A stretch of DNA of 64,000 bases from a virus (IMGVR_UViG_2639762884_000001); one strand, 5' to 3'; numbered from the stretch's first letter, positions 17,209 to 61,177 are shown. Translations and numbers: made by a program. Notes: a model not told the origin generated them from the letters alone.

Positions 17209-18429
17209 TTAATTAAAACCGAATGAATTAAGTTCTGCTTTGAATTTATCGACCATTTTTTCAACTTCGTTTACAATTGCGTGAATCTCTTCGTCTTTTC
17301 TCGGATTAGAATTGAGGTCAAAATATGCCTTATATAAGGCATATTTTGACAAGCTTCCTTCAATATTTTCAGAGAAAATATTGGTACGACCATCAGTTAA
17401 TAAGATATCAGCAGATCGGGAATTTAAATTATATTTATAGTAAATCTTTATTAGTCTGCTTATCTCTTTTTCATTCTTGATTACCCTCTGTCTTTTACCA
17501 GCAATATTAAGACTCCAGCCTACATAACTAGTCAGATCGGAATTAAACTTACACACTTCCGCATCAGCTTTTTCCATATTTAGATTAATATTATTTCTCA
17601 TGTGTAGCGGTAATTCGTTGAATTTTTGCTGTAAATGCTGTTTGCAGGGATTGTTGTAAGACCACAGAATTGCGAACGTAGCTCTTTGCATCCGGGTATT
17701 CAGATCGATGTTAAAGTTCTCACGATCACGAATCATTTCATCTACATAAAACTCTACAGCTTTTCGGTATTCTTTGTTAAAGATCTCGGTAACATACATT
17801 TCTAAATAATGGACTTTCGAGATTGCCTCATCAAAAAAAAGCTCACTCTCAAAGAAGTTGTATTTATTTAAGAGATTAGAAAGTCTACTTAAGTCATAGG
17901 TTTTATTATTTTCAATATTAAGACCAAAAATGGCAATTAACAGACTTACTTTATGATTAATACTGCTACGTAATTGAGCTATATAAATTCTCTTTTCATC
18001 TTCTGCTGATGACAGTAGATAAAACTCTTTATCTAAATAATTTAAAATTAGAATTATGTGATTTACATATTTAATGTAAATAGGTTGTTTTGTTACATAA
18101 TAATAAATGCTTTTGATGGAATTAATGCTCAATTTCGTATTAAACTCTTTGTCATTCAACAAAGTGTTATTTACGTCCTCAAGTAATTTATCATGTTGCT
18201 CTAGTAATATTCCGTACCATTCTTTAAAAGAGGCTTTTTTCATTTCAAGAAGTGAATCTGCCGTTAATTGTGTTGCCTTCATTGCAGCTTTTGCACTATT
18301 TCTTGCCTCATAAGCAGCCCAAGCAGTAACAAAAGTAGCAAGTGAACCTATAGCCTCTTTGTATTCTTTAGCCACATCCCAAAAAATAATAGTTATTACA
18401 CACAATATGAGAATTAATATTAAAGGCAT
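17209..18429 (-). CDS. membrane-anchored protein of unknown function (AT-rich accessory gene)
   Basis: N-terminal TM MPLILILILCVITIIFW; remainder K/N/Y/F-rich; composition visibly more AT-rich than neighbours; opposite strand. Confidence 0.55.
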   Translation of the reverse strand: MPLILILILCVITIIFWDVAKEYKEAIGSLATFVTAWAAYEARNSAKAAMKATQLTADSLLEMKKASFKEWYGILLEQHDKLLEDVNNTLLNDKEFNTKLSINSIKSIYYYVTKQPIYIKYVNHIILILNYLDKEFYLLSSAEDEKRIYIAQLRSSINHKVSLLIAIFGLNIENNKTYDLSRLSNLLNKYNFFESELFFDEAISKVHYLEMYVTEIFNKEYRKAVEFYVDEMIRDRENFNIDLNTRMQRATFAILWSYNNPCKQHLQQKFNELPLHMRNNINLNMEKADAEVCKFNSDLTSYVGWSLNIAGKRQRVIKNEKEISRLIKIYYKYNLNSRSADILLTDGRTNIFSENIEGSLSKYALYKAYFDLNSNPRKDEEIHAIVNEVEKMVDKFKAELNSFGFN

Positions 18430-18635
18430 GTTATCTATATCGTTAGTTAATTTTGAACATAAATGATACTTAGTCCACCGCTAAATTTCATCAAATTTGA
18501 TAATTTTCTTGACGATCATGTCTCAAAATTATTTATACTTGGCATATTTGAGATATATAATAATAGGTAATAACACACCTATCACATTTAAGCATCAACA
18601 AGATAAATTACGGACCCAGACCAGAAAGGAAACTA

Positions 18636-19095: not shown

Positions 19096-20199
19096 ATGAA
19101 AAATAGCTTTGACAGAGCACGCGCTGCGGAGAACACCTCAAAAGAGGCGATAGAGTATCTCGAAAGAGCATCTCAAATGCAGGCCGTTATGATCTCCCAG
19201 GTCAGCAATGACATGAGATTCTCGGACGCATTCATGTTATTCACTCGCTTATCTCTGCTGATAACCAGACGTCGGCCAGAGATCGCTGTTCATTGTATTT
19301 TGATACATGTTTTGCCGCACATTGCCGATGTAAAAGTAAGTGACATTAATAGGTTCATGGTGAACCAACTGGTCAACCCACTAATACTGGATGGCAAAAT
19401 TGTTATGGGCCGCCGCGTTTTCTCTCTGATGAAGCAGTTCCTTAGCTGGTGCGCCTTCCAGGGGATGATAGACGTGTCACCGTTAAACGATATGTCACTT
19501 AACAAAGTTGCCGGTGGCGCAAAGCCCACACCTCGCGAGCGGAAGCTGACCGACGCAGAGGTATGGGTGTTCTGGAATATATGGGACTACTTCAATGTGT
19601 GTGCTGGTACAAAATGGGCGGCCAGGCTGTGTCTTGTATCAGCAAGACGACCTGACGAAGTACTGCGGGCTAAAAAAAGTGAGTTCAATCTTAAGCGTGG
19701 GGTTTGGAATCAAGGCAAGAGGAACAAATCTGCCCGTGAGCATTCTCTGCCTTTAAGCTCATTAATGCGCACTTGTATTGAAGAGTTGTTCGAATATGGT
19801 AAAGACAGCCAGTGGCTCGTGCCTTCGAATAAAAAAATCGGGAAAGACCTTCCTATGTCTAAAGTGGCAATAGCCCAGGCATTACGTCGTATTCTGGAAC
19901 GACCAGAACTGATGGAGCTTGAGCCATTTACACCCCGAGATTTGCGCCGTACTGCGCGTAGTTACTTCCCAGCATTAGGCATAAGCCAGGAGGTATCACG
20001 TAAAATCATGAACCACAGTCTTGAGGGGATAGATCGGGTCTACGACCGGCACGATTATATGGACGAGATGCGAGACGCCTTAGAAAGTTTCTCGACGTAC
20101 ATCGCATCAATCGTAGAGCAACCGGATTTAGACGAAATTGACCACAAATTTAAGGGAGATCGTCTATCAACAGAGCTTATTCGTGTAAATTTTTCATAG
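19096..20199 (+). CDS. int: tyrosine site-specific recombinase (phage integrase family)
   Basis: C-terminal catalytic signature ...RDLRRTARSYF...HSLEGIDRVYDRHDY; core-binding-like middle domain; N-terminal arm-binding region short or atypical. Confidence 0.75.
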   Translation: MKNSFDRARAAENTSKEAIEYLERASQMQAVMISQVSNDMRFSDAFMLFTRLSLLITRRRPEIAVHCILIHVLPHIADVKVSDINRFMVNQLVNPLILDGKIVMGRRVFSLMKQFLSWCAFQGMIDVSPLNDMSLNKVAGGAKPTPRERKLTDAEVWVFWNIWDYFNVCAGTKWAARLCLVSARRPDEVLRAKKSEFNLKRGVWNQGKRNKSAREHSLPLSSLMRTCIEELFEYGKDSQWLVPSNKKIGKDLPMSKVAIAQALRRILERPELMELEPFTPRDLRRTARSYFPALGISQEVSRKIMNHSLEGIDRVYDRHDYMDEMRDALESFSTYIASIVEQPDLDEIDHKFKGDRLSTELIRVNFS

Positions 20200-20580
20200 A
20201 GACTTTATGGCCTCAACAACCTTTTGTGATGCGCCTTTCTCTTTACCGAATCGCTCGTTATATGCAGCAAGAACCTGTTTTTCGTCCTCGTTAAGAGGAG
20301 CAGTGCCTTCTTTGTATAAAAATGCTGCGAGTTCGGGTTGGCGTTCTTCCAGCACCATCATCATAAGACGACTTGGCTCAATACCCAGTGCCAGCGCCAG
20401 CGGACGAACCTTATCGATAGGCAAAGGAATTTTGCCGCTTTTAATTAAAGAAAGGTTGTTGGCGTTTTTATACCCAATTGTTTTGGCTATCTGGGCCTGG
20501 CTCATAGGTGAGGATTCAATCAACCCTGCGATAAAAGCAGCGTAGCGACTTTCTATAAATTCAATCTTGTTATCAGACAT
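20194..20580 (-). CDS. HTH transcriptional regulator (XRE/Cro-CI-like)
   Basis: HTH segment MSQAQIAKTIGYKNANNLSLIKSG; 128 aa; convergent with recombinase; AAAGG RBS. Confidence 0.6.
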   Translation of the reverse strand: MSDNKIEFIESRYAAFIAGLIESSPMSQAQIAKTIGYKNANNLSLIKSGKIPLPIDKVRPLALALGIEPSRLMMMVLEERQPELAAFLYKEGTAPLNEDEKQVLAAYNERFGKEKGASQKVVEAIKSL

Positions 20581-20831
20581 GGTTACAACCTTTGCGCGTT
20601 CAATTCTCTCTGGTAAGTGCTTACCGATATTACATCAAAGGTTAGGGTTGTAAAGCTATTATCATTTTTTTCGATAGGCACTTAAAAGACCGGTTAAAGG
20701 CCATTGCACGGAGAAAAATTAGCCCAAAACAGGTAAGAAAATCAACTTGCATATGATATGTATGTATTCAGTATTGATACAAATTTTAGTAGTATTCCTT
20801 ACCATAGTATAAGTTAGAATGGATTGATTGA

Positions 20832-37922: not shown

Positions 37923-38024
37923 ACCGCTGACAGCATACTTGATTTGCCGCTGACAGAATACCAAAAACAGTTGGCAGCATACGGTGAACCGCTGACAGAC
38001 TATCAATTACCGCTGACAGCATAC
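37923..38024. repeat. iteron array II (4-5 copies) upstream of repA: candidate origin
   Basis: Same 16-mer at ~37923, 37946, 37971 (partial), 37988, 38009 with ~21-25 bp spacing. Confidence 0.75.
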
Positions 38025-38059
38025 ATGAACATGGCTTCAGACCAGTCGTGGCGCGGCTT

Positions 38060-38140
38060 ACAGCGATCGGGGATCTTATTTGATCTATACAAGGATCTAT
38101 CTATGGATCTCTTTATTAGGATCTATCCTGTGGATATGTG
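38060..38140. promoter_or_regulatory. origin-adjacent GATC cluster with DnaA-box-like site
   Basis: Six GATC within ~60 bp (repeated GGATCT/AGGATCTAT units) and TGTGGATAT at ~38129-38137 (one mismatch to TGTGGATAA). Confidence 0.55.
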
Positions 38141-38223
38141 AATAATTAAAACAGGCATTTACTACCTTCGGCGCACCTGGTGGGTTATCGTTGCCTCGGC
38201 TAACAATCACAGAAAAATGACAT

Positions 38224-38868
38224 ATGGATCTAAAACGCACGCGCTGGGTTCGTCGTCTTGAAGACGGCTCCTACACTATCGAATCAAATTCCAACCTGAA
38301 TAAGCAGAAGTTGCTTTGTGACATCTGCGGTATAGCGGCGAAGTGCCCGATCTACGAAACCAGAATTAAACTTGATAAGGCTGGTGTGAATTTTCATTTA
38401 AACAGTTGCATCAGGTACGTTCCATTACTCGCATTTCGTAAACCGATCATCGGATTGGATGCTCCCTACTTCAACACACTCCGTTCAGGTGTGACGTGGC
38501 GAGATCGTTTATCACCAGACAAGCTGATTTGCCTCGTATCCGCAGACACAGGGAAAATCATCCGTTTTGGGAAAGTAGACAAGGTTTACTCAGGCCCAGT
38601 AGACGAAATGTTGCGGAAACACAGCCGGTTTAATCATCTCTGTATGGGTGGTGAGAAAATCGAGAAGGTAGAAGAAGTGATCCGCAAATCCTACGGACAC
38701 TTTCTGACCAAAGATAGCCTGCTCACCGCAATCTACATCAGACATGTAAAACGTGAGTTCGACCTCGAATACCACAGCGAAGAAGAGCTTAACCTTGTTG
38801 ACCCACGTCCAAAAGCTGGCGTCATAAGCATAAACGCAGCGCGTAAAAAGCCCACTGACGCGCTGTAA
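38224..38868 (+). CDS. hypothetical protein
   Basis: 214-aa ORF next to the origin region. Confidence 0.5.
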   Translation: MDLKRTRWVRRLEDGSYTIESNSNLNKQKLLCDICGIAAKCPIYETRIKLDKAGVNFHLNSCIRYVPLLAFRKPIIGLDAPYFNTLRSGVTWRDRLSPDKLICLVSADTGKIIRFGKVDKVYSGPVDEMLRKHSRFNHLCMGGEKIEKVEEVIRKSYGHFLTKDSLLTAIYIRHVKREFDLEYHSEEELNLVDPRPKAGVISINAARKKPTDAL

Positions 38869-38990
38869 CCCTCCAGATCGTATATTGGCGTAGATAGAAT
38901 CTACGCCCCCTCAAAATAGCTCTCATAGCGTTCTACAGTGATCCTGTCTTATTTTTAGTCATACAGACAAGCAAAGTTGCGCCACGATAA

Positions 38991-39009
38991 ATAGGTATAT
39001 ACTTACTTA
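38991..39009. promoter_or_regulatory. ATAGGTATATACTTACTTA motif (family member)
   Basis: ~130 nt upstream of SbcD-like gene. Confidence 0.3.
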
Positions 39010-39122
39010 TAAATTTTGTATATTAAGGCGCTCGTTTCATTCCTAACATACCGTTATGCATAGTTGTTTACCTCCTCATTGCTCTTAGAATTTGTATCAA
39101 AATAACCACAAAGGAAAAATAC

Positions 39123-40208
39123 ATGACTTTGCCATACGGCGTCATTTCTGACTGCCACTACCACAAATGGGATGCGTTCTCCACGACGAACGCTGAGGGG
39201 CTTAACTCCAGACTTGAAATACAGTTGGAAGCAACGAAAGAAGCAGCCATCGCCATGAAGAAGGCCGGTTGTAAGTACATGTTGGTTGCCGGTGATACAT
39301 TTCACGTCCGAGGAACTGTGTCCCCTTCTGTTTTGCATTACGTAACTGAAACGTACAAGTGGATTATCAACGAGCTTGATCTGACAGTAGTAATGCTGGC
39401 CGGTAATCACGATCTTGAAACCAACGATTCAGTATATAGCGCCAACGCAGCAGCATCGCTGAGTTCTATCGGCGTGGTAATCGTATGTGGCAAGCGCCCA
39501 CACTCAATAAAAATTGGTGATGTGACTGTCCACCTGATTAGCTGGCGTAACAATCATGCGGAACTTATCAGCGATCTGAAAGCATTACGTAAGAGCGTAG
39601 AAGGTGATAATCATGACGTTGTTATCCATACATCCATTAACAAAGCCATTCCAACAATGCCTGACGTCGGTATCGATGCGCAGGAGTTAAAGGATATCGG
39701 CTTTCGTCTCGTGCTTAGTGGGCATTACCACAACCACAAAGAGGTCATTCCTGGAGTTATCAGTGTCGGTGCACTGACTCATCAAAATTGGGGAGATGTT
39801 GGATCTCTGGCTGGCTACATGATCGTAAACCCGGACGGCAGTTTCAGTCACTACGAAACCAGTGCGCCTAAATTCATTAACCTGGAAGATGATGTTGCTG
39901 ATGACCAAATTCGCGGCAACTACGTGCGTTTCCGCGCCGTAATTGAGAACGATGAAGAAGGCATTAAGTACCAGAACATCCTCAAAACAATGGGTGCAAA
40001 AGGTGTCGTGTGCAACTTCATCCGTAAGTCATCAATGATGGAAGGGACAGCCAGCACAACTGAAACCAGCAAAATCGATAGCCTAGGAGAGTCGGTATCT
40101 GCTTATTGCAAGATTGTCCACGATACTGACGGCGGATTTGATCTGAGCAAATTGGATATTTTGTGTCAGGAAATCCTCACCGAAGCGGAGAGTTCGGAGG
40201 CTGTGTGA
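39123..40208 (+). CDS. SbcD/Mre11-like nuclease (calcineurin-like phosphoesterase)
   Basis: Phosphoesterase motifs GDTFH, MLAGNHD, GHYHNH; followed by SbcC-like ATPase. Confidence 0.75.
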   Translation: MTLPYGVISDCHYHKWDAFSTTNAEGLNSRLEIQLEATKEAAIAMKKAGCKYMLVAGDTFHVRGTVSPSVLHYVTETYKWIINELDLTVVMLAGNHDLETNDSVYSANAAASLSSIGVVIVCGKRPHSIKIGDVTVHLISWRNNHAELISDLKALRKSVEGDNHDVVIHTSINKAIPTMPDVGIDAQELKDIGFRLVLSGHYHNHKEVIPGVISVGALTHQNWGDVGSLAGYMIVNPDGSFSHYETSAPKFINLEDDVADDQIRGNYVRFRAVIENDEEGIKYQNILKTMGAKGVVCNFIRKSSMMEGTASTTETSKIDSLGESVSAYCKIVHDTDGGFDLSKLDILCQEILTEAESSEAV

Positions 40209-52265: not shown

Positions 52266-53075
52266 ATGAGTTCGGTTGAAAATGTAATGACAAATGATGA
52301 TCTGGATGAGCTGACAGCCATGTTGCAATCACTTGATGAACCAGTAAAAAAAGCTGCACAGGTTGAAAATACTGATGATATTGACGATCTGCTTCTCGGC
52401 CTCGATGCTGGCGTAGCCATGAGTTCTGATGATGTTGCCGAAGAACTGTTCAATGAAGAAAAAGTAGGTGATTTCAGCTCCGCTTTAAATGAGTTGGAAT
52501 TAGCTCATGAGCCTATAAACGTAATTAACGCTGAAAGTGTTGAAGCTGCCGTAAACGAGCCAGAACAATTGGGATTTATTGAGGTTGAAGAGTGTGTTGA
52601 GGTTAATGAAGAATTAAAAGTTCAACAGTCAAATGATAGCAATACAAATAAAAAAGCTCGTACTGCAAGAGGTCCTCGTTTTACTTTAAGTGATAAAGAT
52701 GATTCGTTTTTCAATAAAGCAGGCTTAGAAAAAGATATTTTCTTAGACGCTTACGATAACGCGCCTGTCAAAGCAAAGGATAAGATATTAAACCTTCTTA
52801 ATTGGTTTAGCGGAGGTCCAGATATTAGTGTTTACACGGTAATTTCCATGAGACACCTTCTCACAGAAAAGAAGGCTACAAGTAATAGTATTAAGATTGC
52901 TTTAATGAGCAATCCAGAAAAACCGTATCCGCTTAACACTGCGTCAACTCAGGCTGGGCAAATGATGGCTGTATTTCCAGCTACAGGAATTGCCGTTAGA
53001 GACGGTGGAAATCTAACATTGAACGAAGAATCACCGATCGTTAAGAAGTTTGTCGCGGAGTACACTATTGGATGA
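52266..53075 (+). CDS. highly acidic hypothetical protein
   Basis: 269 aa; N-terminal half very Asp/Glu-rich (DDLDELTAMLQSLDEP...DDIDDLLLGLDAG...); AGGAG RBS. Confidence 0.5.
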   Translation: MSSVENVMTNDDLDELTAMLQSLDEPVKKAAQVENTDDIDDLLLGLDAGVAMSSDDVAEELFNEEKVGDFSSALNELELAHEPINVINAESVEAAVNEPEQLGFIEVEECVEVNEELKVQQSNDSNTNKKARTARGPRFTLSDKDDSFFNKAGLEKDIFLDAYDNAPVKAKDKILNLLNWFSGGPDISVYTVISMRHLLTEKKATSNSIKIALMSNPEKPYPLNTASTQAGQMMAVFPATGIAVRDGGNLTLNEESPIVKKFVAEYTIG

Positions 53076-53227
53076 CGTTCCCCTACTGAAAATAAAGCCC
53101 ATAGAGAGCTTTATAGTGCTGGGTAAGCCAATCACATACCCAGCACCACAAAAACGCGCCAGAGAGCTTCTCGTTTGCATTTCTGGCGCGTTTTATTTGA
53201 TTGCCATACATAAAATCAAATGCAAAA

Positions 53228-53247
53228 ATAGGTAATCACTTACCTAT
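53228..53247. promoter_or_regulatory. ATAGGTAATCACTTACCTAT palindrome (family member)
   Basis: Perfect AGGTAA/TTACCT inverted repeat just upstream of the Dam-like gene. Confidence 0.35.
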
Positions 53248-53258
53248 TGAGAAAGAAG

Positions 53259-53852
53259 ATGATTGCAGCCGAAAAAATCAAAAAGCGAAAGCGCGACAAC
53301 TCTCTTCGTGACCTCTGGAGAACACCTGACTGGCTGTTTAATGCCATTCAACGTTATCTGGGAGTGACATTTGATGTTGACGTTGCCTGCAATAAGGACA
53401 ATGCAAAGCTGCCTATTTTCATAGGCGTTGAGCGCGATGCTTTGAAATCTGAATGGGGGCAGCCAGGTACAATTGCCTTCCTCAATCCACCCTACTCCAA
53501 AATCTCCCCCTGGATTGATGCGGCTATACGTGAGCAGGCTCGCGGAGTTACAACAGTGATGCTAATTCCTCAATCCCTCGATACAAAGTGGTATGAGCGT
53601 GCAACAGAGTGTGCGAATGAGACGATTATTCTGTCTGGTGGCCGCGTAGCGTTTGTCGAGCCTGACGTCAATCTGGGTCAGGTAGAAGTAAACATCAACC
53701 CCGGTGGCAGTATGCTCGTTGTTTTTCGCGGATTCTGTCAGGACGCTGGGCACTCTATAAGCAAGATCCCTTTGGACGTCATGAAAAGTCTGGGAGGGTA
53801 TGATCCTGCGAATGTGATCAGGAAAAAAAGACCATCAAAGAAGGCTGCTTAG
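53259..53852 (+). CDS. DNA N6-adenine methyltransferase (phage Dam-like)
   Basis: Catalytic NPPY (AFLNPPYSKISPWIDAA); 197 aa from ATG 53259 (table start 53247 is TTG). Confidence 0.7.
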   Translation: MIAAEKIKKRKRDNSLRDLWRTPDWLFNAIQRYLGVTFDVDVACNKDNAKLPIFIGVERDALKSEWGQPGTIAFLNPPYSKISPWIDAAIREQARGVTTVMLIPQSLDTKWYERATECANETIILSGGRVAFVEPDVNLGQVEVNINPGGSMLVVFRGFCQDAGHSISKIPLDVMKSLGGYDPANVIRKKRPSKKAA

Positions 53853-53873
53853 TTTGCTCTGGCGTCTGTAATT

Positions 53874-53932
53874 AGCCTGCTTCTGTATATATAAATAACT
53901 ACATATTAATTATTAATATACGGAAGCAGGCT
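53874..53932. repeat. AGCCTGCTTCTGTATATAT...ATATACGGAAGCAGGCT hairpin element, copy 2 (likely terminator)
   Basis: Near-identical to 6778-6838 element; followed by gttttg. Confidence 0.5.
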
Positions 53933-54038
53933 GTTTTGTATCAGAGACTCCCAGACCTGAACATCACTACAGAATCCACTAGAACCCCTTCCCAGACGCT
54001 TTAAAATCGATTTTATGAACCACTTTAAGGAAACCAAC

Positions 54039-54269
54039 ATGTCATACCCGACTAATGTCGTTGCGCTCGTAGAGAGCGATTTTCTGGCCCAGGCTCGTGA
54101 AATGATGAAAGATCGTGAGCAGGCCTTCAACTTGTACGAATGGGCAATTAAGTGCTTGCATCTTGGCGAGCATCGCGAACTTGTTGAACAGCTTTTAGGT
54201 GAGTTGATCAATGAGGTGTTTGCCTTGAATGTTCAACTACATGGTAGAGAAAATAATCAATCACAATGA
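54039..54269 (+). CDS. hypothetical protein
   Basis: ATG 54039 with AAGGA RBS. Confidence 0.45.
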   Translation: MSYPTNVVALVESDFLAQAREMMKDREQAFNLYEWAIKCLHLGEHRELVEQLLGELINEVFALNVQLHGRENNQSQ

Positions 54270-54850
54270 TAGATAAGTACAAACTATTCATAAAGTGAAT
54301 TGTAAGTGCTAAGATCTGATAGTTTCCAGTCGTAGACTGGAGGCTCGATCTGATGGGTGGGGGTAAGCGTCACTGGCGTCAGGTTTAAAAAAGCTCACTA
54401 CCAGCGTAGAACCGGTGCCGTTTAGGTGTCGGGGAAGGGGGAACCAAAGTGAGCAGAGACAAGGGTCACTTTATGATTGTCGAGTCTGGGGTGTTTCGAG
54501 AGGTTGAATCCAGTACTCCCCTTCATAAAGTGTGGGAAGATCTCGGTTCTGGGGTGCTGTCATCCATAACTTCCCAAGTCTAAGCTGGCAGTAGACTTAG
54601 ACCATAGCTTTTCAGGTTATGAAACGACCAGGTTGGTGAGGAATTTTATACTCACCTCCCTGGGAGAGTATTACCTGAAAAGACAACCTCTCACTTCGTT
54701 CGAGGTGAACTTCACTCACTTCGTTCGTTCAGTTCAGGTTTATAAAAACCTGTTCTGGGAAGTAATTTGTTTATTTTAATAATTATTAACACGCACGCGT
54801 GTGCGCACGCGCGAGGAAAAAATCGGCGCGGCGCTTGATTCAGGAGTTTA
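54270..54850. other. ~580-bp non-coding, GC-richer structured region (candidate ncRNA or cis element)
   Basis: No plausible ORF on either strand; hairpins (ccagtc gta gactgg), direct repeats (tcacttcgttcg x2, tctggggtg x2) and GC palindrome cacgcgtg near 54790-54812. Confidence 0.35.
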
Positions 54851-54851
54851 T

Positions 54852-55445
54852 ATGACGACGAAGACACCAGCCCGATCGCAAGCAAAAACTCGCAAAAAAG
54901 ACAAAAACAAAAATTCTCCCCGCACCAATCCCACAACGCCTGTCGTAGAGTTCAACCCCCAGCTTAAAACCGTGAAAATCTTTAGTGATGGCTCTTGCCT
55001 CAAAAATCCGGGTGGCCCGGGCGGTTACGGTATCGTTCTCCAGTATCGTGGTGAGGAACGCGAGTTCTCAGATGGTTTTCATAGCACCACCAATAACCGC
55101 ATGGAGATGATGGGGGCACTTATCGGGCTGGAGCGTTTGAAATATCCATGCAACGTTATTTTGTACTCTGATAGCCAGTATCTGAAAAACGGCATGACAC
55201 AGTGGATGAAATGGTGGAAACGTAATGGATGGATGACTTCTGATAAAAAACCGGTAAAGAATGTTGATCTGTGGAAACGTCTGGATGAGGCCGCAAGTCG
55301 ACATAATGTTCGCTGGAAGTGGGTTAAAGGTCACGCCGGGCATCGTGAAAATGAAATATGTGATCGACTCGCGAAGATCGCAGCTTTTTCCGCAGCCGAT
55401 ACGCCTCACAAGAAAGACATTGGTTTTATTTACAACAAGTGGTAA
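54852..55445 (+). CDS. rnhA: ribonuclease HI with N-terminal basic extension
   Basis: Core closely matches bacterial RNase HI ([51 protein letters not shown]); ~38-aa Lys/Arg/Thr-rich N-terminal extension; ATG 54852 with AGGAG RBS. Confidence 0.85.
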
Positions 55446-55462
55446 GTAAGTGTTTACCTATC
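55442..55462. promoter_or_regulatory. GTAAGTAAGTGTTTACCTATC motif (family member)
   Basis: Overlaps the RNase H stop codon. Confidence 0.3.
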
Positions 55463-55590
55463 ATATTAAATCATGTATCTTATCGGCGTCAGGATGACAA
55501 TGTGTCGGTAAGACACAGTTCCAGGATGGAACGAGAAAGGCGGCTGGCGATCGCCAGCCGCAACTCTTTCTGACACTGGATGGAGTCCAC

Positions 55591-56085
55591 ATGGCACGTC
55601 AAACCTATTTCACTTCTGCAACTAAACGTCCTCGTTCACTACGTCAAATTTTGGCCGAATTATTTAGCGGTCGTGTTCTGTCACGTCTTGATGAACTGGA
55701 GACTACCGTTCGGTTGCTGAATGAACGTTTAGATAAGCAAGCGTCAGTTGTTGCGAACGTGGGGGCGATTGTTACCTCTGGTTCTTCACACCAAGCGAAA
55801 AATGCACGGCCTTTAGTGAAGGAGAAAAACAACAAGGACAGTTCGAATGGAAAATTTTCAAAGAAAGAGGCTGAAACCAATGGCCTACGTTCTCATTATA
55901 GTTTCACTGGCGACGGTAGCCGTTCCAGCCGGTCAGAGCCTTTTGATGCCGGATTCATCCATCACCACACCTCCGTCGACGACAATTACCACCACTCCAG
56001 TAGAGCGTCCTGTCACTCTGGATGGGATGACGGTGGATGCGATACCTCAAGTTCATCCAGTTACTCAGGATCATGTTGTGACTAA
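55591..56085 (+). CDS. hypothetical protein (3' half doubtful)
   Basis: Convincing coiled-coil-like N-terminal ~90 aa; 3' half overlaps ORF 55847..56098 in another frame and looks low-complexity. Confidence 0.3.
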   Translation: MARQTYFTSATKRPRSLRQILAELFSGRVLSRLDELETTVRLLNERLDKQASVVANVGAIVTSGSSHQAKNARPLVKEKNNKDSSNGKFSKKEAETNGLRSHYSFTGDGSRSSRSEPFDAGFIHHHTSVDDNYHHSSRASCHSGWDDGGCDTSSSSSYSGSCCD

Positions 56086-56098
56086 GGTGGTTGTATGA
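55847..56098 (+). CDS. membrane protein with Thr/Pro-rich linker
   Basis: TM segment MAYVLIIVSLATVAVPA then TTPPSTTITTTP. Confidence 0.4.
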   Translation: MENFQRKRLKPMAYVLIIVSLATVAVPAGQSLLMPDSSITTPPSTTITTTPVERPVTLDGMTVDAIPQVHPVTQDHVVTKVVV

Positions 56099-56283
56099 AC
56101 TGGCTTTCAAATCACTTTGGGAAAATTTGGCTGGCAATTCTGGCTCTCATGGCCGCCGGTTGGGTATCCAACATTATAAAACTCGTTTGCTCAGGTGATC
56201 TCCAGTTTCAGGCTGGCATGACCTTGGCTCGTGTAGTTGGGATTTTTATTTTTCCAGTCGGTTCGGTACTTGGTTATTTCTGA
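56095..56283 (+). CDS. small membrane protein
   Basis: 62 aa, two hydrophobic segments. Confidence 0.45.
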   Translation: MNWLSNHFGKIWLAILALMAAGWVSNIIKLVCSGDLQFQAGMTLARVVGIFIFPVGSVLGYF

Positions 56284-56337
56284 CGGTTGTTAGTGCATAT
56301 GCATTGACCGTCTTTGCGTAAGCAATTTATGTAACCA

Positions 56338-56355
56338 GAAAACAATTTGTTTTGA
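56338..56355. promoter_or_regulatory. GAAAACAA-N-TTGTTT palindromic motif
   Basis: gaaaacaatttgttttga, 39 nt upstream of ATG 56377. Confidence 0.45.
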
Positions 56356-56376
56356 CAAATAGCAAAAGGAAAACAC

Positions 56377-56802
56377 ATGTTAGGTTTCTTCAAAAAGAAA
56401 ACTCGTAAAGCTGTTATCGAAGTCAAAAAAATGGAGAACCGTGATGCGGTTGAAGCCACCGTGTGGGGCGGGTACATGATCTCCTATGCCAACGGTACAT
56501 GCGATGCAAAAGAAATTTCCATTCTTGAGAAAACAATTGCAGCTCTGCCTGCATTTTCTCCTTTTGCTGGTGAGATTGCCCAGATGAGCGCCAATATCCG
56601 CGCTCAATACGAAGCCTCACCGCGCCGTGCTAATGCCCAGGCTTTACGTGAGCTGGCGGATGTGGCCGGGACTGATGATGCAGTAGATGTACTGTGTCTG
56701 TGCCTTGATATTGCCGACCAGGACGGCATTGATGAACCAGAAGAGCAGGCGCTGAAAAAGATCGCCCAGGCGCTTCAGTTGTCACTGGATGCTTATCTCT
56801 AA
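56377..56802 (+). CDS. hypothetical protein (possibly TerB-like)
   Basis: 141 aa; acidic C-terminal helical region with loose resemblance to TerB-type domains. Confidence 0.3.
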   Translation: MLGFFKKKTRKAVIEVKKMENRDAVEATVWGGYMISYANGTCDAKEISILEKTIAALPAFSPFAGEIAQMSANIRAQYEASPRRANAQALRELADVAGTDDAVDVLCLCLDIADQDGIDEPEEQALKKIAQALQLSLDAYL

Positions 56803-56960
56803 TGCTTGAGAGATTCCGGCTTGTGACCGTCATTGCTCTTCTGGTGATGGCGGTGTTGGTGGATTTTACGGGAAAGATGATGTCTGTCATTTCTGATGGC
56901 GTCCTCATTGGTCTGGCGATCTACTTCGCTTATCCGCTAGTCCGTAAAGCAACGTGTTAA
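56802..56960 (+). CDS. small membrane protein (52 aa, not in ORF table)
   Basis: ATG overlaps upstream stop; two hydrophobic segments; followed by terminator. Confidence 0.4.
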   Translation: MLERFRLVTVIALLVMAVLVDFTGKMMSVISDGVLIGLAIYFAYPLVRKATC

Positions 56961-56962
56961 TG

Positions 56963-56992
56963 ACAAGGGCCAAATGGCCCTTGTGTTTCGTT
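56963..56992 (+). terminator. rho-independent terminator
   Basis: acaagggcc aaa tggcccttgt followed by gtttcgtt. Confidence 0.6.
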
Positions 56993-57066
56993 GACCGAAA
57001 TAGAGAGTTTGCACCTTTACGTTTAGCTTGCTCCCCTTTTATGCCACATCACAATAAAGCCAATAA

Positions 57067-57084
57067 GAAAACAACTTGTTTAAG
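57067..57084. promoter_or_regulatory. GAAAACAA-N-TTGTTT palindromic motif
   Basis: gaaaacaacttgtttaag, 33 nt upstream of ATG 57100. Confidence 0.45.
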
Positions 57085-57099
57085 CATTAGGAAAAACAC

Positions 57100-57669
57100 A
57101 TGTGCAAGAAATGCAAAGCGATAGCTGATGAACAAAACGCCTTATTCGAAGAAATGGATGCTAATGAACTGGTCAAAATGTTAGCCATTCTTCGAGGAAT
57201 AGAAGACGTTTCCATATTTGAGAGAGTGGTTACAGCACTTAATTTTGAGTCCACCTTTGAAGAGCCAACTCAGGTTGTAGCTTTAGCACATCATTTCGGT
57301 GTTCATTATCTTGCTGAAAAAGAGCGCGCTGATAAGTTGCAGGCGACTTTGGATATGGTGAGCGAGACTCAACGAACTGATGACACTAACAAGAGTGAGG
57401 CGATTATTGCCAGCAAAGATCGTGAAATTGCTGGGCTTAAATCCTCTCTAACGATGTTGATGTCTGCGTTCAATCTTATGTCTTCTCAGGCGGGTTATAA
57501 AATGCCATCACTAAACAGCGATGATCCGATGGCCGTTCGTCAGCTTTTGGGAGCAATGGCCGACCAACTCGACGACACAAAGAGTCGCCTTGAAGACATG
57601 ATGCGTGAGTTAAGCCATCGACATAACCTCGCAACACAACCACACAAAGTCTTTCAAAGCTCTAATTGA
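57100..57669 (+). CDS. hypothetical protein
   Basis: 189-aa ORF with conserved AAAAACACATG leader. Confidence 0.5.
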   Translation: MCKKCKAIADEQNALFEEMDANELVKMLAILRGIEDVSIFERVVTALNFESTFEEPTQVVALAHHFGVHYLAEKERADKLQATLDMVSETQRTDDTNKSEAIIASKDREIAGLKSSLTMLMSAFNLMSSQAGYKMPSLNSDDPMAVRQLLGAMADQLDDTKSRLEDMMRELSHRHNLATQPHKVFQSSN

Positions 57670-57723
57670 TCTGATATGGCCGCATGATCGGCCATATTGT
57701 GTTGATAAAAACAAGGGTGAAAA

Positions 57724-58005
57724 ATGGCATACGGTACAGGGATTTACAACAATAAAGGAATTAACGTTACTGGCTTCCTTACACCTATTTTTTTTCTTGA
57801 TCGATTTACGGCGTCATCAGGCTCTAAGACGTACTCTAATCCGCCACCGGGTAAATCACTACATGCCGTGTGGTCATTAATGCCTCTTAACAACGACAAC
57901 TACATCAATTTACCTGTTCCAAATGTTACTATTAATGGAAATACGGTTAGTTGGTCAAATTTATATACGGGGCTTGGTTCTTACATATACACATACTGGG
58001 GATAA
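57724..58005 (+). CDS. hypothetical protein (AT-rich accessory gene 1 of 2)
   Basis: 93 aa, Asn/Tyr/Gly-rich; AT-rich composition. Confidence 0.45.
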   Translation: MAYGTGIYNNKGINVTGFLTPIFFLDRFTASSGSKTYSNPPPGKSLHAVWSLMPLNNDNYINLPVPNVTINGNTVSWSNLYTGLGSYIYTYWG

Positions 58006-58007
58006 TT

Positions 58008-58622
58008 ATGTTCGGGATGTCAATTACTCAATCAGATGGAAGTTTGTGGATGAGTCCAGAATTTACTCCGCAAAATCTGATTAATAAAGGGACAATGTCT
58101 ACATCTAAAGGTTCTGTTTTTCAAACATCAATCCCATCAAACAAATCATGTTTTTTTTTCATAAAAAGCAGTAATAAGGCGAACATGATGTTTATTCATG
58201 AGCATAGTAACGGATACAATGCTCTCAGATTGCATCAGGTAAATGGTAGCCCCGGAACAATAACAGTTTATGCTTTTTCTGATATGGTGTTACCACATTC
58301 TGGCTATGGCATTGCCATGTATAACAGCGCAGGCGCAATGGTGTATCACGGTGAGATGATGCCCCTTGATGCGAAACTTATCACTATTTCTGACCCTCAA
58401 TTTACAATAGATATGGGGTATCCATGTGCGGTAATGCCTGCTATGGTTGGAGTATATAACTATAGACGAACCGATTACGACAGACCTGTCTATGTAACAA
58501 TGACAGGTGCAACTGGAAACCAAGTATATAACGGTCAATGGTATTCCGGTAATGTCACATGGGATATTAAGAAGATTTATACAAACAAAATTCTGGTGAT
58601 AAATACCTCCAAGTATGATTAG
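58008..58622 (+). CDS. hypothetical protein (AT-rich accessory gene 2 of 2)
   Basis: ATG 58008 three nt after upstream stop; Asn/Tyr/Met-rich, predicted beta-rich. Confidence 0.45.
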   Translation: MFGMSITQSDGSLWMSPEFTPQNLINKGTMSTSKGSVFQTSIPSNKSCFFFIKSSNKANMMFIHEHSNGYNALRLHQVNGSPGTITVYAFSDMVLPHSGYGIAMYNSAGAMVYHGEMMPLDAKLITISDPQFTIDMGYPCAVMPAMVGVYNYRRTDYDRPVYVTMTGATGNQVYNGQWYSGNVTWDIKKIYTNKILVINTSKYD

Positions 58623-58685
58623 CCAATGCCTTTATTTGAAGGATTGCCTGTTTATTTCTATTTAGTACCTTTTCATTTTTGAAAT

Positions 58686-58725
58686 AATTGCACCATTAAA
58701 CAAATCACTTCTTAATGGTGCAATT
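58686..58725. promoter_or_regulatory. perfect 14-bp inverted repeat abutting the methyltransferase start codon
   Basis: aattgcaccattaa - 12 nt - ttaatggtgcaatt, ending at the ATG. Confidence 0.5.
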
Positions 58726-60411
58726 ATGAATACAGCCCTTTCCATCATCGACGATGCCAACTCAAACACTGCTATCGACTATCGGCAGGAAATGAACGTC
58801 ATCCACGAAATTGTGGCCGAGTGCGAGAAAGAGATCGCCTTCATGTATCAGGTTCACGACTTCGTTTATGGCGACGAACGCCACAACATGATTAATCGCC
58901 TGCTGAGACTAAACCATCGACCAGATGAAGATCGCTCGCGTTTAAATCGAGGTTGGTTGGATAAAGTCGATCTGGAATGGGTGAAACAGAATATTTGGGC
59001 CGAGTACTGGAGGAAGGTCACGGACATGACTAACGTTTTGCTGATCATGCCAGCTTCCCGTCGAGATGAGTGGCGCGAGCAGTTTATAGAGGGCAAACAG
59101 GAAGTCATCAAAACTGACAGAACCGGCTACCAGATGAAGGTTAAAGAGTTCGTTGGTGTACCGGAGTTCAAAGCAGAAACGGTCATACCCACGATGCTTA
59201 ATTTGCTGAATGACAGGCACAAATATCTCTCTGAGCGCGTGTATGGCTTGTTTAAGGCGCTGAGTCCTGCGCACAAGACAAATAAGACAAACGGTTTCAG
59301 CGAGCGTCTGATAATCGCTGACTGCATTTCTGATTTCTGGCGGGACAGCGTTAGCGTGAACTATCGCAAAGAGGACTACATCGACGATCTGCGTGTCTTG
59401 CTTCATTTCTTCGCGCACAAAGAATTTATTACCATCAACCGCACTGCTGAGGTGCTATCAGCTGCGTATCGGGCAAACGACTGCCAGACCGGTGACTGGA
59501 TGAACGTCGATGGAAATCTGATGCGCGTGAAGATGTTCAAGAACGGCAACGTTCACTTTGAAATACATCCTGACGTGGCCTGGAAGTTGAATGAGGTGCT
59601 GGCTTACAGTATGCCTGCTGCAATTCCCGCGCCATGCCGAACTGCGCCAAAAACACGGGCACCAAAGCAGTTCGGGTTAATCCAGAAGACGATCTCCGTG
59701 CCGGTTCGCACTGCGCTTCGTGACGGGCGATTTAGCAAAGACAAAGGCGTATGGTACTTCTCTGATTCAGCTCTCCAGAAGTCGCAGGTGGAAGAGCTTG
59801 AGCGCACACTGAGCTTCATTGGCGGCGTGCAGGAGAAAAAGCACTGGCAGTTCCCGTATGAGATCGGCCATACGCTAAATACGATTGTGGCTACCGGTTT
59901 AATACCGGATACAAAATCACACCAGTTCTACCCTACCCCACGCTTGATTGCTGAGTACGTTGCCAGAGCCACTGAATTGAAGCCTGGTGAGAAGTTGTTG
60001 GAGCCTCAAGCCGGACGTGGGGATCTTCTGGCCTATATTAACGCCGATCTGGAAGATGTTACCTGCATAGAAATCGCACCTCTCTTCGCTGATATCCTGC
60101 GTGGAAAAGGGTATACGAACACGATTTGCTGCGACTTCATAAAGTGGTCTGAGGACAACGCAGGTTATCAGTTCGACAAAATCGTTATGAACCCGCCGTA
60201 CTCGCTTGGTCGTCATAGAGAGCACACGCTGGCTGCGCTGGGGCATCTGAAAGTCGGCGGGCGTCTTGTAGCAGTATTGCCGGGCACTGCGCCAATACTG
60301 GACTGGATGACGATGGATAATTACGTTTATGCCAGAGGGAAGTCGTTTACCAACGAGTTTGAAGACACAGGGATCACAGTCAGCGTATACGTTTTCAAAC
60401 GCGTTAAATGA
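58726..60411 (+). CDS. DNA N6-adenine methyltransferase (gamma-class) fused to a large N-terminal domain of unknown function
   Basis: C-terminal ~180 aa: FYPTP, SAM motif LEPQAGRGDLL, catalytic MNPPYS; N-terminal ~380 aa without recognised motif; no adjacent restriction enzyme gene. Confidence 0.65.
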   Translation: MNTALSIIDDANSNTAIDYRQEMNVIHEIVAECEKEIAFMYQVHDFVYGDERHNMINRLLRLNHRPDEDRSRLNRGWLDKVDLEWVKQNIWAEYWRKVTDMTNVLLIMPASRRDEWREQFIEGKQEVIKTDRTGYQMKVKEFVGVPEFKAETVIPTMLNLLNDRHKYLSERVYGLFKALSPAHKTNKTNGFSERLIIADCISDFWRDSVSVNYRKEDYIDDLRVLLHFFAHKEFITINRTAEVLSAAYRANDCQTGDWMNVDGNLMRVKMFKNGNVHFEIHPDVAWKLNEVLAYSMPAAIPAPCRTAPKTRAPKQFGLIQKTISVPVRTALRDGRFSKDKGVWYFSDSALQKSQVEELERTLSFIGGVQEKKHWQFPYEIGHTLNTIVATGLIPDTKSHQFYPTPRLIAEYVARATELKPGEKLLEPQAGRGDLLAYINADLEDVTCIEIAPLFADILRGKGYTNTICCDFIKWSEDNAGYQFDKIVMNPPYSLGRHREHTLAALGHLKVGGRLVAVLPGTAPILDWMTMDNYVYARGKSFTNEFEDTGITVSVYVFKRVK

Positions 60412-60429
60412 TAGGTAAATACTTACTTA
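60411..60429. promoter_or_regulatory. ATAGGTAAATACTTACTTA motif (family member)
   Basis: Overlaps the methyltransferase stop codon. Confidence 0.3.
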
Positions 60430-60472
60430 ATTTGTGTAAGAATGTAATAACTAAACGATAAGAGAAAAACAC

Positions 60473-61177
60473 ATGAACAACCTCCAGTTAGAGCATTTTA
60501 ACGTCACAGGCCATTCTGATTTTCCTTTCAAGTTTACATTGAAAGGTTATGCAGAGGATGCGGTAGGCCAGATCATTATTGATAAAGGCATCGTTAAGTT
60601 TGAGGGGGATTTTGATGAATCCGCGAAAACATTCATAGACTTCGTTGCCAAACGTTGGAGCGAGCAATGGAAAGACCTGGAAAAGCGCGCTAATGAGTTT
60701 GATCGGTTCATGGATGCAATGGATACAGCAAAAGAGGCTCTTGCTGCCGGGACTCCGTTAGATCTGGAGTCACTTTTCAACGGCGAAGTGGCCTCTGCGA
60801 TGTTCGCCACCATGTTCGCGGGTGAGTTCGTCCGCAGCGGTGCCAAAAACTACCTTGAGCTGGATTACAACGTCCCTGCAATTGGCGATTTCGTCGTTAC
60901 CATCCAACGCAAAGAAGGTAAGACGCCAGGTGAACGCGTCGCAGAGCTTGAGGCCGTTGTGGATCAGCGTAACGGAGAGTGTGACCGTTTGATCAACGAG
61001 CTTCATGCACTTCGGGAAGAAAGAATATGCGCGGGTAGTAATACACGTAATGCAGCGGATATCTACTTCCAGTTAGTTGAGGAATGCCAGATTCCACCAG
61101 GTGGCTCTCTTGTCGATTACGTCAGACATTTAATGGCGGAAGTTAACTCCAGCCATAAAGATGGTGAGGTGCGCTGA
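60473..61177 (+). CDS. hypothetical protein
   Basis: 234-aa ORF with AGAGAAAAACACATG leader. Confidence 0.5.
   Translation: MNNLQLEHFNVTGHSDFPFKFTLKGYAEDAVGQIIIDKGIVKFEGDFDESAKTFIDFVAKRWSEQWKDLEKRANEFDRFMDAMDTAKEALAAGTPLDLESLFNGEVASAMFATMFAGEFVRSGAKNYLELDYNVPAIGDFVVTIQRKEGKTPGERVAELEAVVDQRNGECDRLINELHALREERICAGSNTRNAADIYFQLVEECQIPPGGSLVDYVRHLMAEVNSSHKDGEVR

Follow-up and report, generated by a model that had tools for sequence, protein, structure and literature searches.

Positions 53,228 to 60,411 of IMGVR_UViG_2639762884_000001, a viral sequence of 64,000 nucleotides (nt) that we call the window, carry two genes for adenine methyltransferases (MTases): one for a Dam-like enzyme of 197 amino acids (aa), the other for a 561-aa protein whose catalytic core lies at its C-terminus. 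On balance, we judge that both are stand-alone (orphan) N6-adenine DNA MTases, silent while the element persists as a plasmid, which probably mark its DNA against restriction during the lytic phase.

Two orphan methyltransferases on a phage-plasmid

Given that the 7.2-kb region is 100% identical to Escherichia coli plasmid CP056300 and 98% identical to Escherichia phage Cyrano, and shows 79-84% identity over 58-65% of its length to Salmonella phage SSU5 and Klebsiella relatives, the window is, judging by its sequence, part of an SSU5-like E. coli phage-plasmid. The region is also 96-99% identical to well over a hundred ~110-kb non-mobilizable plasmids, and 704 plasmid records match it. In the annotation of Cyrano, both MTase genes stand within a long same-strand array of DNA-metabolism genes, the members of which include SbcC, RuvC, ribonucleotide reductase, MazG, ThyX, DHFR, an exonuclease, RNase H and Ead/Ea22-like genes.

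A preliminary description of the region, made from the sequence alone, had named a 197-aa Dam-like enzyme with an NPPY motif, and this assignment holds. The protein (201 aa if the open reading frame (ORF) is read mechanically from a TTG at 53247) scored 128.6 bits against PF05869 (cut-off 28.1, E 2e-37) and 113.1 bits against TIGR01712 (cut-off 97.05), and was assigned to PHROG 111. It carries NPPYS at aa 76-80 (NPPY at aa 76-79), in keeping with the catalytic (D/N)PP(Y/F) motif IV. What it has in common with the PF05869/TIGR01712 phage Dam family is thus a score over both cut-offs, the NPPY motif and small size. Its relatives are encoded in 1,983 phage records; the closest outside the SSU5 group belong to Vibrio phages (40-41% identity), while the homologues of Stx-converting phages and mEp213 are 39% identical, and no sequence-related solved structure was found. 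The characterised members of the family (T1 Dam, HP1 Dam and VT2/933W Dam) are, we presume, GATC-specific, and judging from its family, GATC or another short site of this kind is the probable target of the window enzyme. Membership in the non-specific Hia5 / Hin1523 family was ruled out, as those are ~290-aa DPPY enzymes with a divergent recognition region.

The 561-aa protein was likewise described correctly as having a C-terminal gamma-class MTase, with all three motifs exactly as they had been quoted: motif X (FYPTP) at aa 401-405, motif I (LEPQAGRGDLL) at aa 425-435 and MNPPYS at aa 488-493 (NPPY, motif IV, at aa 489-492). The linear order X, I, IV is that of the gamma class, and the motifs are kept in 27 homologues. 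The statement that no restriction enzyme gene lies nearby was confirmed as well: neither Pfam nor PADLOC scans detected a nuclease family among the ORFs neighbouring both MTases, the curated Cyrano annotation contains no restriction enzyme gene in the surrounding 31 kb, and no nuclease that would make up a restriction-modification system was detected, whether as the product of a partner gene or as a domain fused to the MTase.

As for expression, Misson et al. (PMC9928086) re-analysed RNA sequencing data of strain LF82 carrying Cyrano, grown overnight in LB, and reported values as fragments per kilobase per million plus 5 (fpkm+5). In these data, the Dam-like gene (CYRAN_79) and the large gene (CYRAN_90) reached 6.0 and 7.8, respectively, next to 7.1 for the terminase, 7.4 for the major capsid protein, 96 for the repressor and about 7,000 for CYRAN_43 (PMC9928086 S1 Table). 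Thirteen genes were found to be expressed in Cyrano lysogeny, and neither MTase is among them (PMC9928086). Being at the level of capsid and terminase, both genes behave as repressed lytic genes. That both are silent in plasmid-state cells speaks against a function at the origin while the element is maintained as a plasmid and favours anti-restriction in the lytic phase; on these values, the earlier proposal that the enzymes regulate a GATC-rich origin is, for plasmid maintenance, left unsupported. A point that weighs against our reading is that the Cyrano data cover uninduced cultures only.

The genomic surroundings of relatives of the large gene are in line with a lytic role. Two homologues, from Variovorax and from an Enterobacterales genome, are carried by lambdoid prophages; they follow directly on the genes of the cI/cro-type switch and of replication, and adjoin other orphan MTases (N6_N4_Mtase, C5 DNA methylase) without a nuclease. 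Two more homologues lie on a plasmid-like contig (with ParB, Dam and UmuDC) and on a phage contig (with a terminase). Of these four distant homologues, none has a nuclease gene nearby and three stand beside other orphan MTases, which is the pattern expected of phage anti-restriction MTases. Anti-restriction self-methylation, one of the functions suggested beforehand, is therefore the role that fits best.

A different situation is seen in Klebsiella plasmid pSg1-1 (CP012427; L013, 211-495), where the DUF4942 MTase gene is cut off after 216 nt and is followed, on the opposite strand, by hsdR, a type I restriction enzyme gene; this arrangement suggests that a restriction-modification system was inserted into an orphan MTase gene.

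Phage-plasmid P1 likewise has its own adenine MTases without a partner nuclease (Dmt and the methyltransferase domain of DarB). Plasmid-borne orphan MTases without a nuclease, M.EcoGIX and M.BceJIII, protect the incoming element from restriction (PMC7736820). Both belong to the beta class, carry a DPPY motif and act on single-stranded DNA in the course of conjugation (PMC7736820), whereas the window element injects double-stranded DNA, and the systems are not homologous; a relationship of the large enzyme to them was ruled out on account of their class.

We thus picture the following course. At the start of the lytic programme, both MTases would most likely be expressed; they would then methylate the replicating phage DNA, such that the packaged genomes would be protected from the restriction enzymes of the next host. 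As a lesser advantage, the enzymes may keep the DNA fully methylated when replication is too fast for host Dam.

An inverted repeat at the large gene and a palindrome at the Dam-like gene

The large gene had been said to begin immediately after a perfect, operator-like 14-bp inverted repeat that could occlude its ribosome-binding site or bind a regulator. The repeat is real and perfect; its arms (ATAATTGCACCATTAA and TTAATGGTGCAATTAT) are 16 bp long rather than 14, with a 12-nt loop between them, and the gene starts within it rather than after it, the A and T of the ATG being part of the right arm. Occlusion is plausible, since the right arm covers GGTG, the only Shine-Dalgarno-like element before the gene, and the repeat folds as an RNA hairpin of -19.1 kcal/mol, with a z-score of -4.0 for a 141-nt region. 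Perfect 16-bp repeats with a loop of up to 40 nt were absent from all 100 Markov-shuffled windows, while the real window has one more, at 17317-17350. This is a perfect 34-bp palindrome without a spacer (GTCAAAATATGCCTTAT / ATAAGGCATATTTTGAC), the longest in the window, and lies inside a low-G+C minus-strand ORF (17209-18429) that is seemingly not present in Cyrano.

We collected 27 distinct sequences from upstream of the gene, from plasmids and viral contigs, 22 of which were aligned and collinear. Across these 22 variants, TG at 58680-58681 and A at 58684 were invariant and T at 58688 nearly so, and these are the positions diagnostic of an extended -10 promoter (TGnNAnnnT). The predicted transcription start of the large gene accordingly falls within the left arm, close to an A at 58695 that is likewise invariant; among divergent relatives, homology begins ~58 nt 5' of the ATG. 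When the variants were read in the register of the window, 79% of cells were paired, as compared to 27-49% in slid registers, suggesting that an imperfect repeat is ancestral and was lengthened to 16 perfect pairs in the E. coli lineage. Among the lineages with a strong repeat, one shows a compensatory exchange of G-C to A-T (ATAATTACACCA / TGGTGTAATTAT), and two independent C-to-T changes in the left arm leave G.U pairs. The loop measures 5 nt in Providencia, 12 in the window and 21 in another lineage (L009), and in Providencia the repeat is kept although a new ribosome-binding site, GAGG, lies 3' of it. A hairpin accounts better than a protein operator of fixed spacing for the variable loop and for the G.U pairs that are tolerated.

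In the arrangement that we propose, the large gene has an extended -10 promoter of its own; the left arm overlies the candidate -10 element together with the predicted transcription start, and the right arm overlies the ribosome-binding site together with the start codon. Most of the left arm would then be missing from transcripts that begin at this promoter, and these could be translated, while those reading through from same-strand upstream genes would form the -19 kcal/mol hairpin, which would conceal both the ribosome-binding site and the AUG. Between 57951 and the repeat, the analysis found no terminator-like site. The transposase gene of IS10 is subject to such fold-back inhibition of translation; it has the same geometry, with its own promoter in the 5' arm and the 3' arm over the ribosome-binding site, and there the inhibitory hairpin is formed by read-through transcripts only. 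The analogy is one of layout only, and we put the chance that the hairpin gates read-through transcripts at the large gene at roughly even among the alternatives.

Three results speak against such gating. A simple sigma-70 scan found no canonical promoter 5' of the large gene, the start being predicted; in a formal covariation test one pair had changed on both sides, no better than in shuffles; and relatives with an upstream terminator retain a 12-bp repeat, suggesting that blocking read-through is not the whole story.

The repeat could instead be a private DNA operator, at which a dimeric protein (the MTase itself through its N-terminus, as in SsoII-type enzymes, or another regulator) represses the promoter. 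Stretching from the -10 element over the predicted start to the ribosome-binding site, it is placed as a classic operator would be; its half-site occurs nowhere else in the window, and one lineage has altered both arms symmetrically, from TTGCACCA/TGGTGCAA to TTACACCA/TGGTGTAA. However, a fixed dimer would not tolerate arms spaced 5, 12 or 21 nt apart depending on the lineage, and the one-arm C-to-T changes of two lineages break the DNA palindrome while keeping RNA pairing. As to the SsoII type, which combines an N-terminal helix-turn-helix with a palindrome in its own promoter, the large gene has the palindrome, Pfam finds no helix-turn-helix domain in its product, and one of the 27 homologues gives a marginal match (HTH_52, E 0.029). 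On the whole, we regard a private operator as rather unlikely. A multi-site operator was rejected: the half-site TTGCACCATTAA, searched with up to two mismatches, is exact only at the two arms, and its count in the window is that expected by chance. The term operator-like thus suits this repeat poorly, occurring once in the window with variable arm spacing; the clearer operator-like element is a palindrome at the Dam-like gene.

The Dam-like gene follows a terminator-like hairpin that ends the upstream gene and has its own predicted promoter; the hairpin is kept, as is the promoter's position, in SSU5 and in Klebsiella pJN2-26. A perfect 20-bp palindrome overlaps the -10 end and the predicted transcription start of this promoter, and in the same two relatives its arms are invariant while the 4-nt loop varies. 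The palindrome, ATARGTAA-N4-TTACYTAT, recurs about 15 times: 14 matches with up to three mismatches were found in the window as against 0.23 expected, and 19 sites matched at least 13 of the 16 positions as against 0.77 expected. Nearly all copies are intergenic, ahead of plus-strand genes, and four lie 61-65 nt before a start codon. The copy at 18563, around which the window carries insertions relative to Cyrano, precedes a glutaredoxin gene, and the copy at the end of the large MTase gene has orthologous copies at the gene's end in SSU5 and pJN2-26. In addition, the core of the palindrome (GGTAAGTGCTTACC) is found at 20611-20624, 31 nt upstream of a 128-aa ORF (20194-20580, minus strand) that adjoins the integrase, corresponds by position to Cyrano's putative repressor and, by eye, contains a helix-turn-helix-like stretch.

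As read from the site sequences, differences between the two arms are not compensatory, as would fit DNA that is bound by a dimeric protein. The palindrome is probably a scattered operator of the element's repressor. Phage-plasmid P1 has scattered operators for its C1 repressor, likewise with one sequence before many lytic genes, including near the repressor gene, whereas the P1 operator is an asymmetric 17-mer, that of the window is a symmetric 20-bp palindrome and its binding protein is putative. No description of the palindrome was found in the literature searched. If it works in this way, the palindrome is a direct handle on how SSU5-like elements keep their lytic genes silent.

Table 1. 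Coordinates of the methyltransferase genes, their control elements and the copies of the palindrome in the window
Feature	Position	Strand	Basis or remark
Terminator-like hairpin AAAACGCGCCAGA / TCTGGCGCGTTTT with T-rich tail	53151-53194	+	13-bp perfect inverted repeat; ends upstream gene
Predicted sigma-70-like promoter of Dam-like gene, TTGCCA-17 nt-AAAAAT, upstream TG	53201-53229	+	Consensus scan
Perfect palindrome copy ATAGGTAA-N4-TTACCTAT (ATAGGTAAnnnnTTACCTAT; ATAGGTAAtcacTTACCTAT)	53228-53247	.	Inverted-repeat search and recurrence
Dam-like phage N6-adenine MTase, 197 aa	53259-53852	+	ATG at 53259; CYRAN_79 in Cyrano; profile matches, motif positions
Palindrome copy, 15/16 positions	55442-55461	.	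At RNase H stop codon; SSU5 and pJN2-26 orthologous copies 16/16
Candidate extended -10 of large gene, TGaAATAAT	58680-58688	+	Proposed from conservation
Left arm of 16-bp perfect repeat, ATAATTGCACCATTAA	58684-58699	+	Inverted-repeat search
Right arm, TTAATGGTGCAATTAT	58712-58727	+	Holds GGTG ribosome-binding site (58717-58720) and AT of ATG
561-aa DUF4942 MTase gene	58726-60411	+	Orthologue of CYRAN_90 / SSU5_095
DUF4942 domain	aa 140-295; 59143-59610	+	PF13708, 73.9 bits against cut-off 25; invariant columns
Catalytic N6-adenine MTase core (last ~165 aa)	aa 395-561; 59908-60408	+	Motifs X, I, IV; no target-recognition domain after it
Palindrome copy, 15/16 positions	60411-60430	.	From last base of large gene's stop codon; 62 nt before next gene (60473)
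Palindrome sites (20 bp each), first half	1480, 6800, 6917, 12185, 15701, 18563, ~23272, 30011
Palindrome sites (20 bp each), second half	33531, 35484, 38991, 43675, 48387, 53228, 55442, 60411

Architecture of the large enzyme

In an alignment of 27 sequences, from E. coli to Variovorax and 34-91% identical to the window protein, many N-terminal residues are invariant in addition to motifs X, I and IV. A Pfam scan of the whole protein gave DUF4942 as the sole match above its cut-off, and the C-terminal 165 aa matched N6_Mtase, RrnaAD and MTS below threshold. N6_Mtase matched 17 of the 27 family members at E <= 0.05 (best E 7.9e-6), PADLOC returned matches to mad2 and to type II methyltransferases, and the family profile matched M.TaqI (E 3e-4) and EcoR124 HsdM. 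In the AlphaFold model (predicted local distance difference test score, pLDDT, 83.6), the catalytic fold superposes on solved gamma-class enzymes.

With M.TaqI, M.BseCI and CamA the protein shares the order of motifs X (FYPTP), I (LEPxAGxG) and IV (NPPY). Those enzymes carry a target-recognition domain after the core, whereas here the last strand of the model spans aa 551-559 and the protein ends two residues later, at aa 561, with no C-terminal target-recognition domain. Unlike in TaqI-type enzymes, all the extra mass, 395 aa including DUF4942, is N-terminal. The large N-terminal domain had been called unknown; its aa 140-295 are the catalogued DUF4942, matched by all 27 aligned homologues, although DUF4942 itself has no known function and is named in four papers of the literature searched, once in each. 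The profile search that had been recommended for the N-terminal region returned DUF4942 and no sequence-profile match to a solved structure within the N-terminal 395 aa, which have no solved structural relative; nor does the N-terminal model show a nuclease fold. When aa 1-395 were searched against 1.8 billion representative proteins, 610 matches were obtained at E <= 0.001, and most of the 150 matches listed are 500-590 aa long with the same two-part architecture.

The enzyme thus consists of a minimal C-terminal TaqI-type core joined to ~395 aa that comprise a helical bundle, DUF4942 and a small alpha/beta subdomain. Because no target-recognition domain belongs to the core itself, which is nearly always found fused to these ~395 aa, the N-terminal region most likely supplies DNA binding and target recognition.

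Two results sit less comfortably with this view. N6_Mtase scored 17.7 bits against the C-terminal 201 aa alone and 13.6 against the whole protein, below its cut-off of 20.4. Moreover, DUF4942 keeps many of its polar residues unchanged even between proteins of 30-35% identity; such invariance would be unusual for a variable target-recognition domain and could reflect a second catalytic or otherwise fixed function.

The latter point leads to the alternative that the large protein is bifunctional, DUF4942 being a second enzymatic or anti-defence domain fused to an MTase of low specificity. Ten polar or glycine residues of DUF4942 (H183, T185, N186, D221, R223, D262, G263, H277, H281 and P282, in the notation of the window protein) persist across the 27 homologues, down to 31-35% identity. 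The module also occurs separately, as shown by PHROG 38825, a family of ~300-aa proteins matching only aa 129-302, and the core occurs in giant phage proteins (1,259-3,925 aa, in PHROGs) and in a protein of Serratia phage Parlo annotated as a 'DarB-like antirestriction protein', whose core is 34% identical. Yet the DUF4942 region matches no known enzyme fold or family, the core has no other candidate element for DNA recognition, and fusion of the two is near-obligatory, as expected for parts of a single enzyme; bifunctionality is, in our estimate, quite improbable. As for the DarB-like or polyvalent antirestriction proteins themselves, only the core is alike, as the large MTase has no helicase or other effector domains.

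Role of the methyltransferases and neighbouring features

Besides anti-restriction in the lytic phase, we considered whether one or both MTases act as epigenetic regulators in the plasmid state, on a GATC-rich replication region or on the lysis-lysogeny switch. Orphan MTases such as Dam and CcrM are known to regulate replication and transcription, and the window has a cluster of 18 GATC sites in 38001-40000, as compared to 5-13 per other 2-kb block. Against this stand the background transcription of both genes in plasmid-state Cyrano and the location of homologues in the lytic early regions of prophages; enterobacterial hosts, including E. coli, already supply a Dam of their own, and overall GATC occurs about as often as expected (observed/expected 0.87). 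Such a role thus appears very unlikely. The cluster at 38001-40000 is presumably the 'GATC-rich origin' of the preliminary description, and a copy of the palindrome lies within it, at 38991.

It is most improbable that the large protein methylates adenines in RNA (rRNA, tRNA or mRNA) rather than DNA, given that its profile matches are to DNA enzymes (M.TaqI, EcoR124 HsdM, N6_Mtase, PADLOC mad2 and type II MTases), that its FYPTP motif X resembles those of type I and TaqI-class DNA enzymes, and that prophage copies of the gene adjoin other DNA methyltransferases.

Several neighbouring features deserve mention. Directly 5' of the large MTase gene, at 57724-58622, are two small genes of PHROG 557 ('outer membrane protein') and PHROG 425 ('membrane associated protein'), which share ~78% DNA identity with phages JenP1 and BRET and are lacking in SSU5 and the Klebsiella relatives; the segment looks like an inserted accessory-gene cassette without a terminator before the MTase gene. 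Between the cluster of the Dam-like gene and RNase H, a gap of ~530 bp (54300-54700) contains only a weak 44-codon ORF starting with GTG (CYRAN_81). Its equivalent is among the few regions of Cyrano that are strongly transcribed in the plasmid state, at 117 as against a background of ~7 (PMC9928086 S1 Table). The gap folds with a z-score of -2.5 and has no Rfam match; it may be an unannotated non-coding RNA. A scan of 52500-61000 with Rfam gave nothing near any gathering score, and no tRNA was found. Across the whole window, CTAG is strongly under-represented, with 37 sites observed and 100 expected under a Markov model.

Both genes are already annotated in hundreds of records, as 'phage N-6-adenine-methyltransferase', 'DUF4942 domain-containing protein' or 'DNA modification methylase', and no literature was found on methylomes or operators of SSU5 elements. 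The system is of a well-known kind; what is new is confined to certain details of the larger enzyme and of the signals that control it, and these results do not overturn current understanding. A bolder account would take the DUF4942 N-terminus as a new DNA-recognition module defining a distinct, recognition-first type of MTase (~600 clusters in phages, prophages and plasmids), with gating by a promoter hairpin and with the palindrome marking the repressor regulon of SSU5-like elements; taken as a whole, we hold this to be possible but doubtful.

The DUF4942 MTase family is large and without experimental study, and a function established for the N-terminal 395 aa would provide hundreds of protein clusters with an annotation. 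Phage-plasmids of the SSU5 type are frequent in E. coli, Salmonella and Klebsiella, and have been reported with antibiotic resistance genes (PMC9600943). MTases of their own could help decide which hosts these elements enter, and knowing the methylated motifs would thus help to predict their host range.

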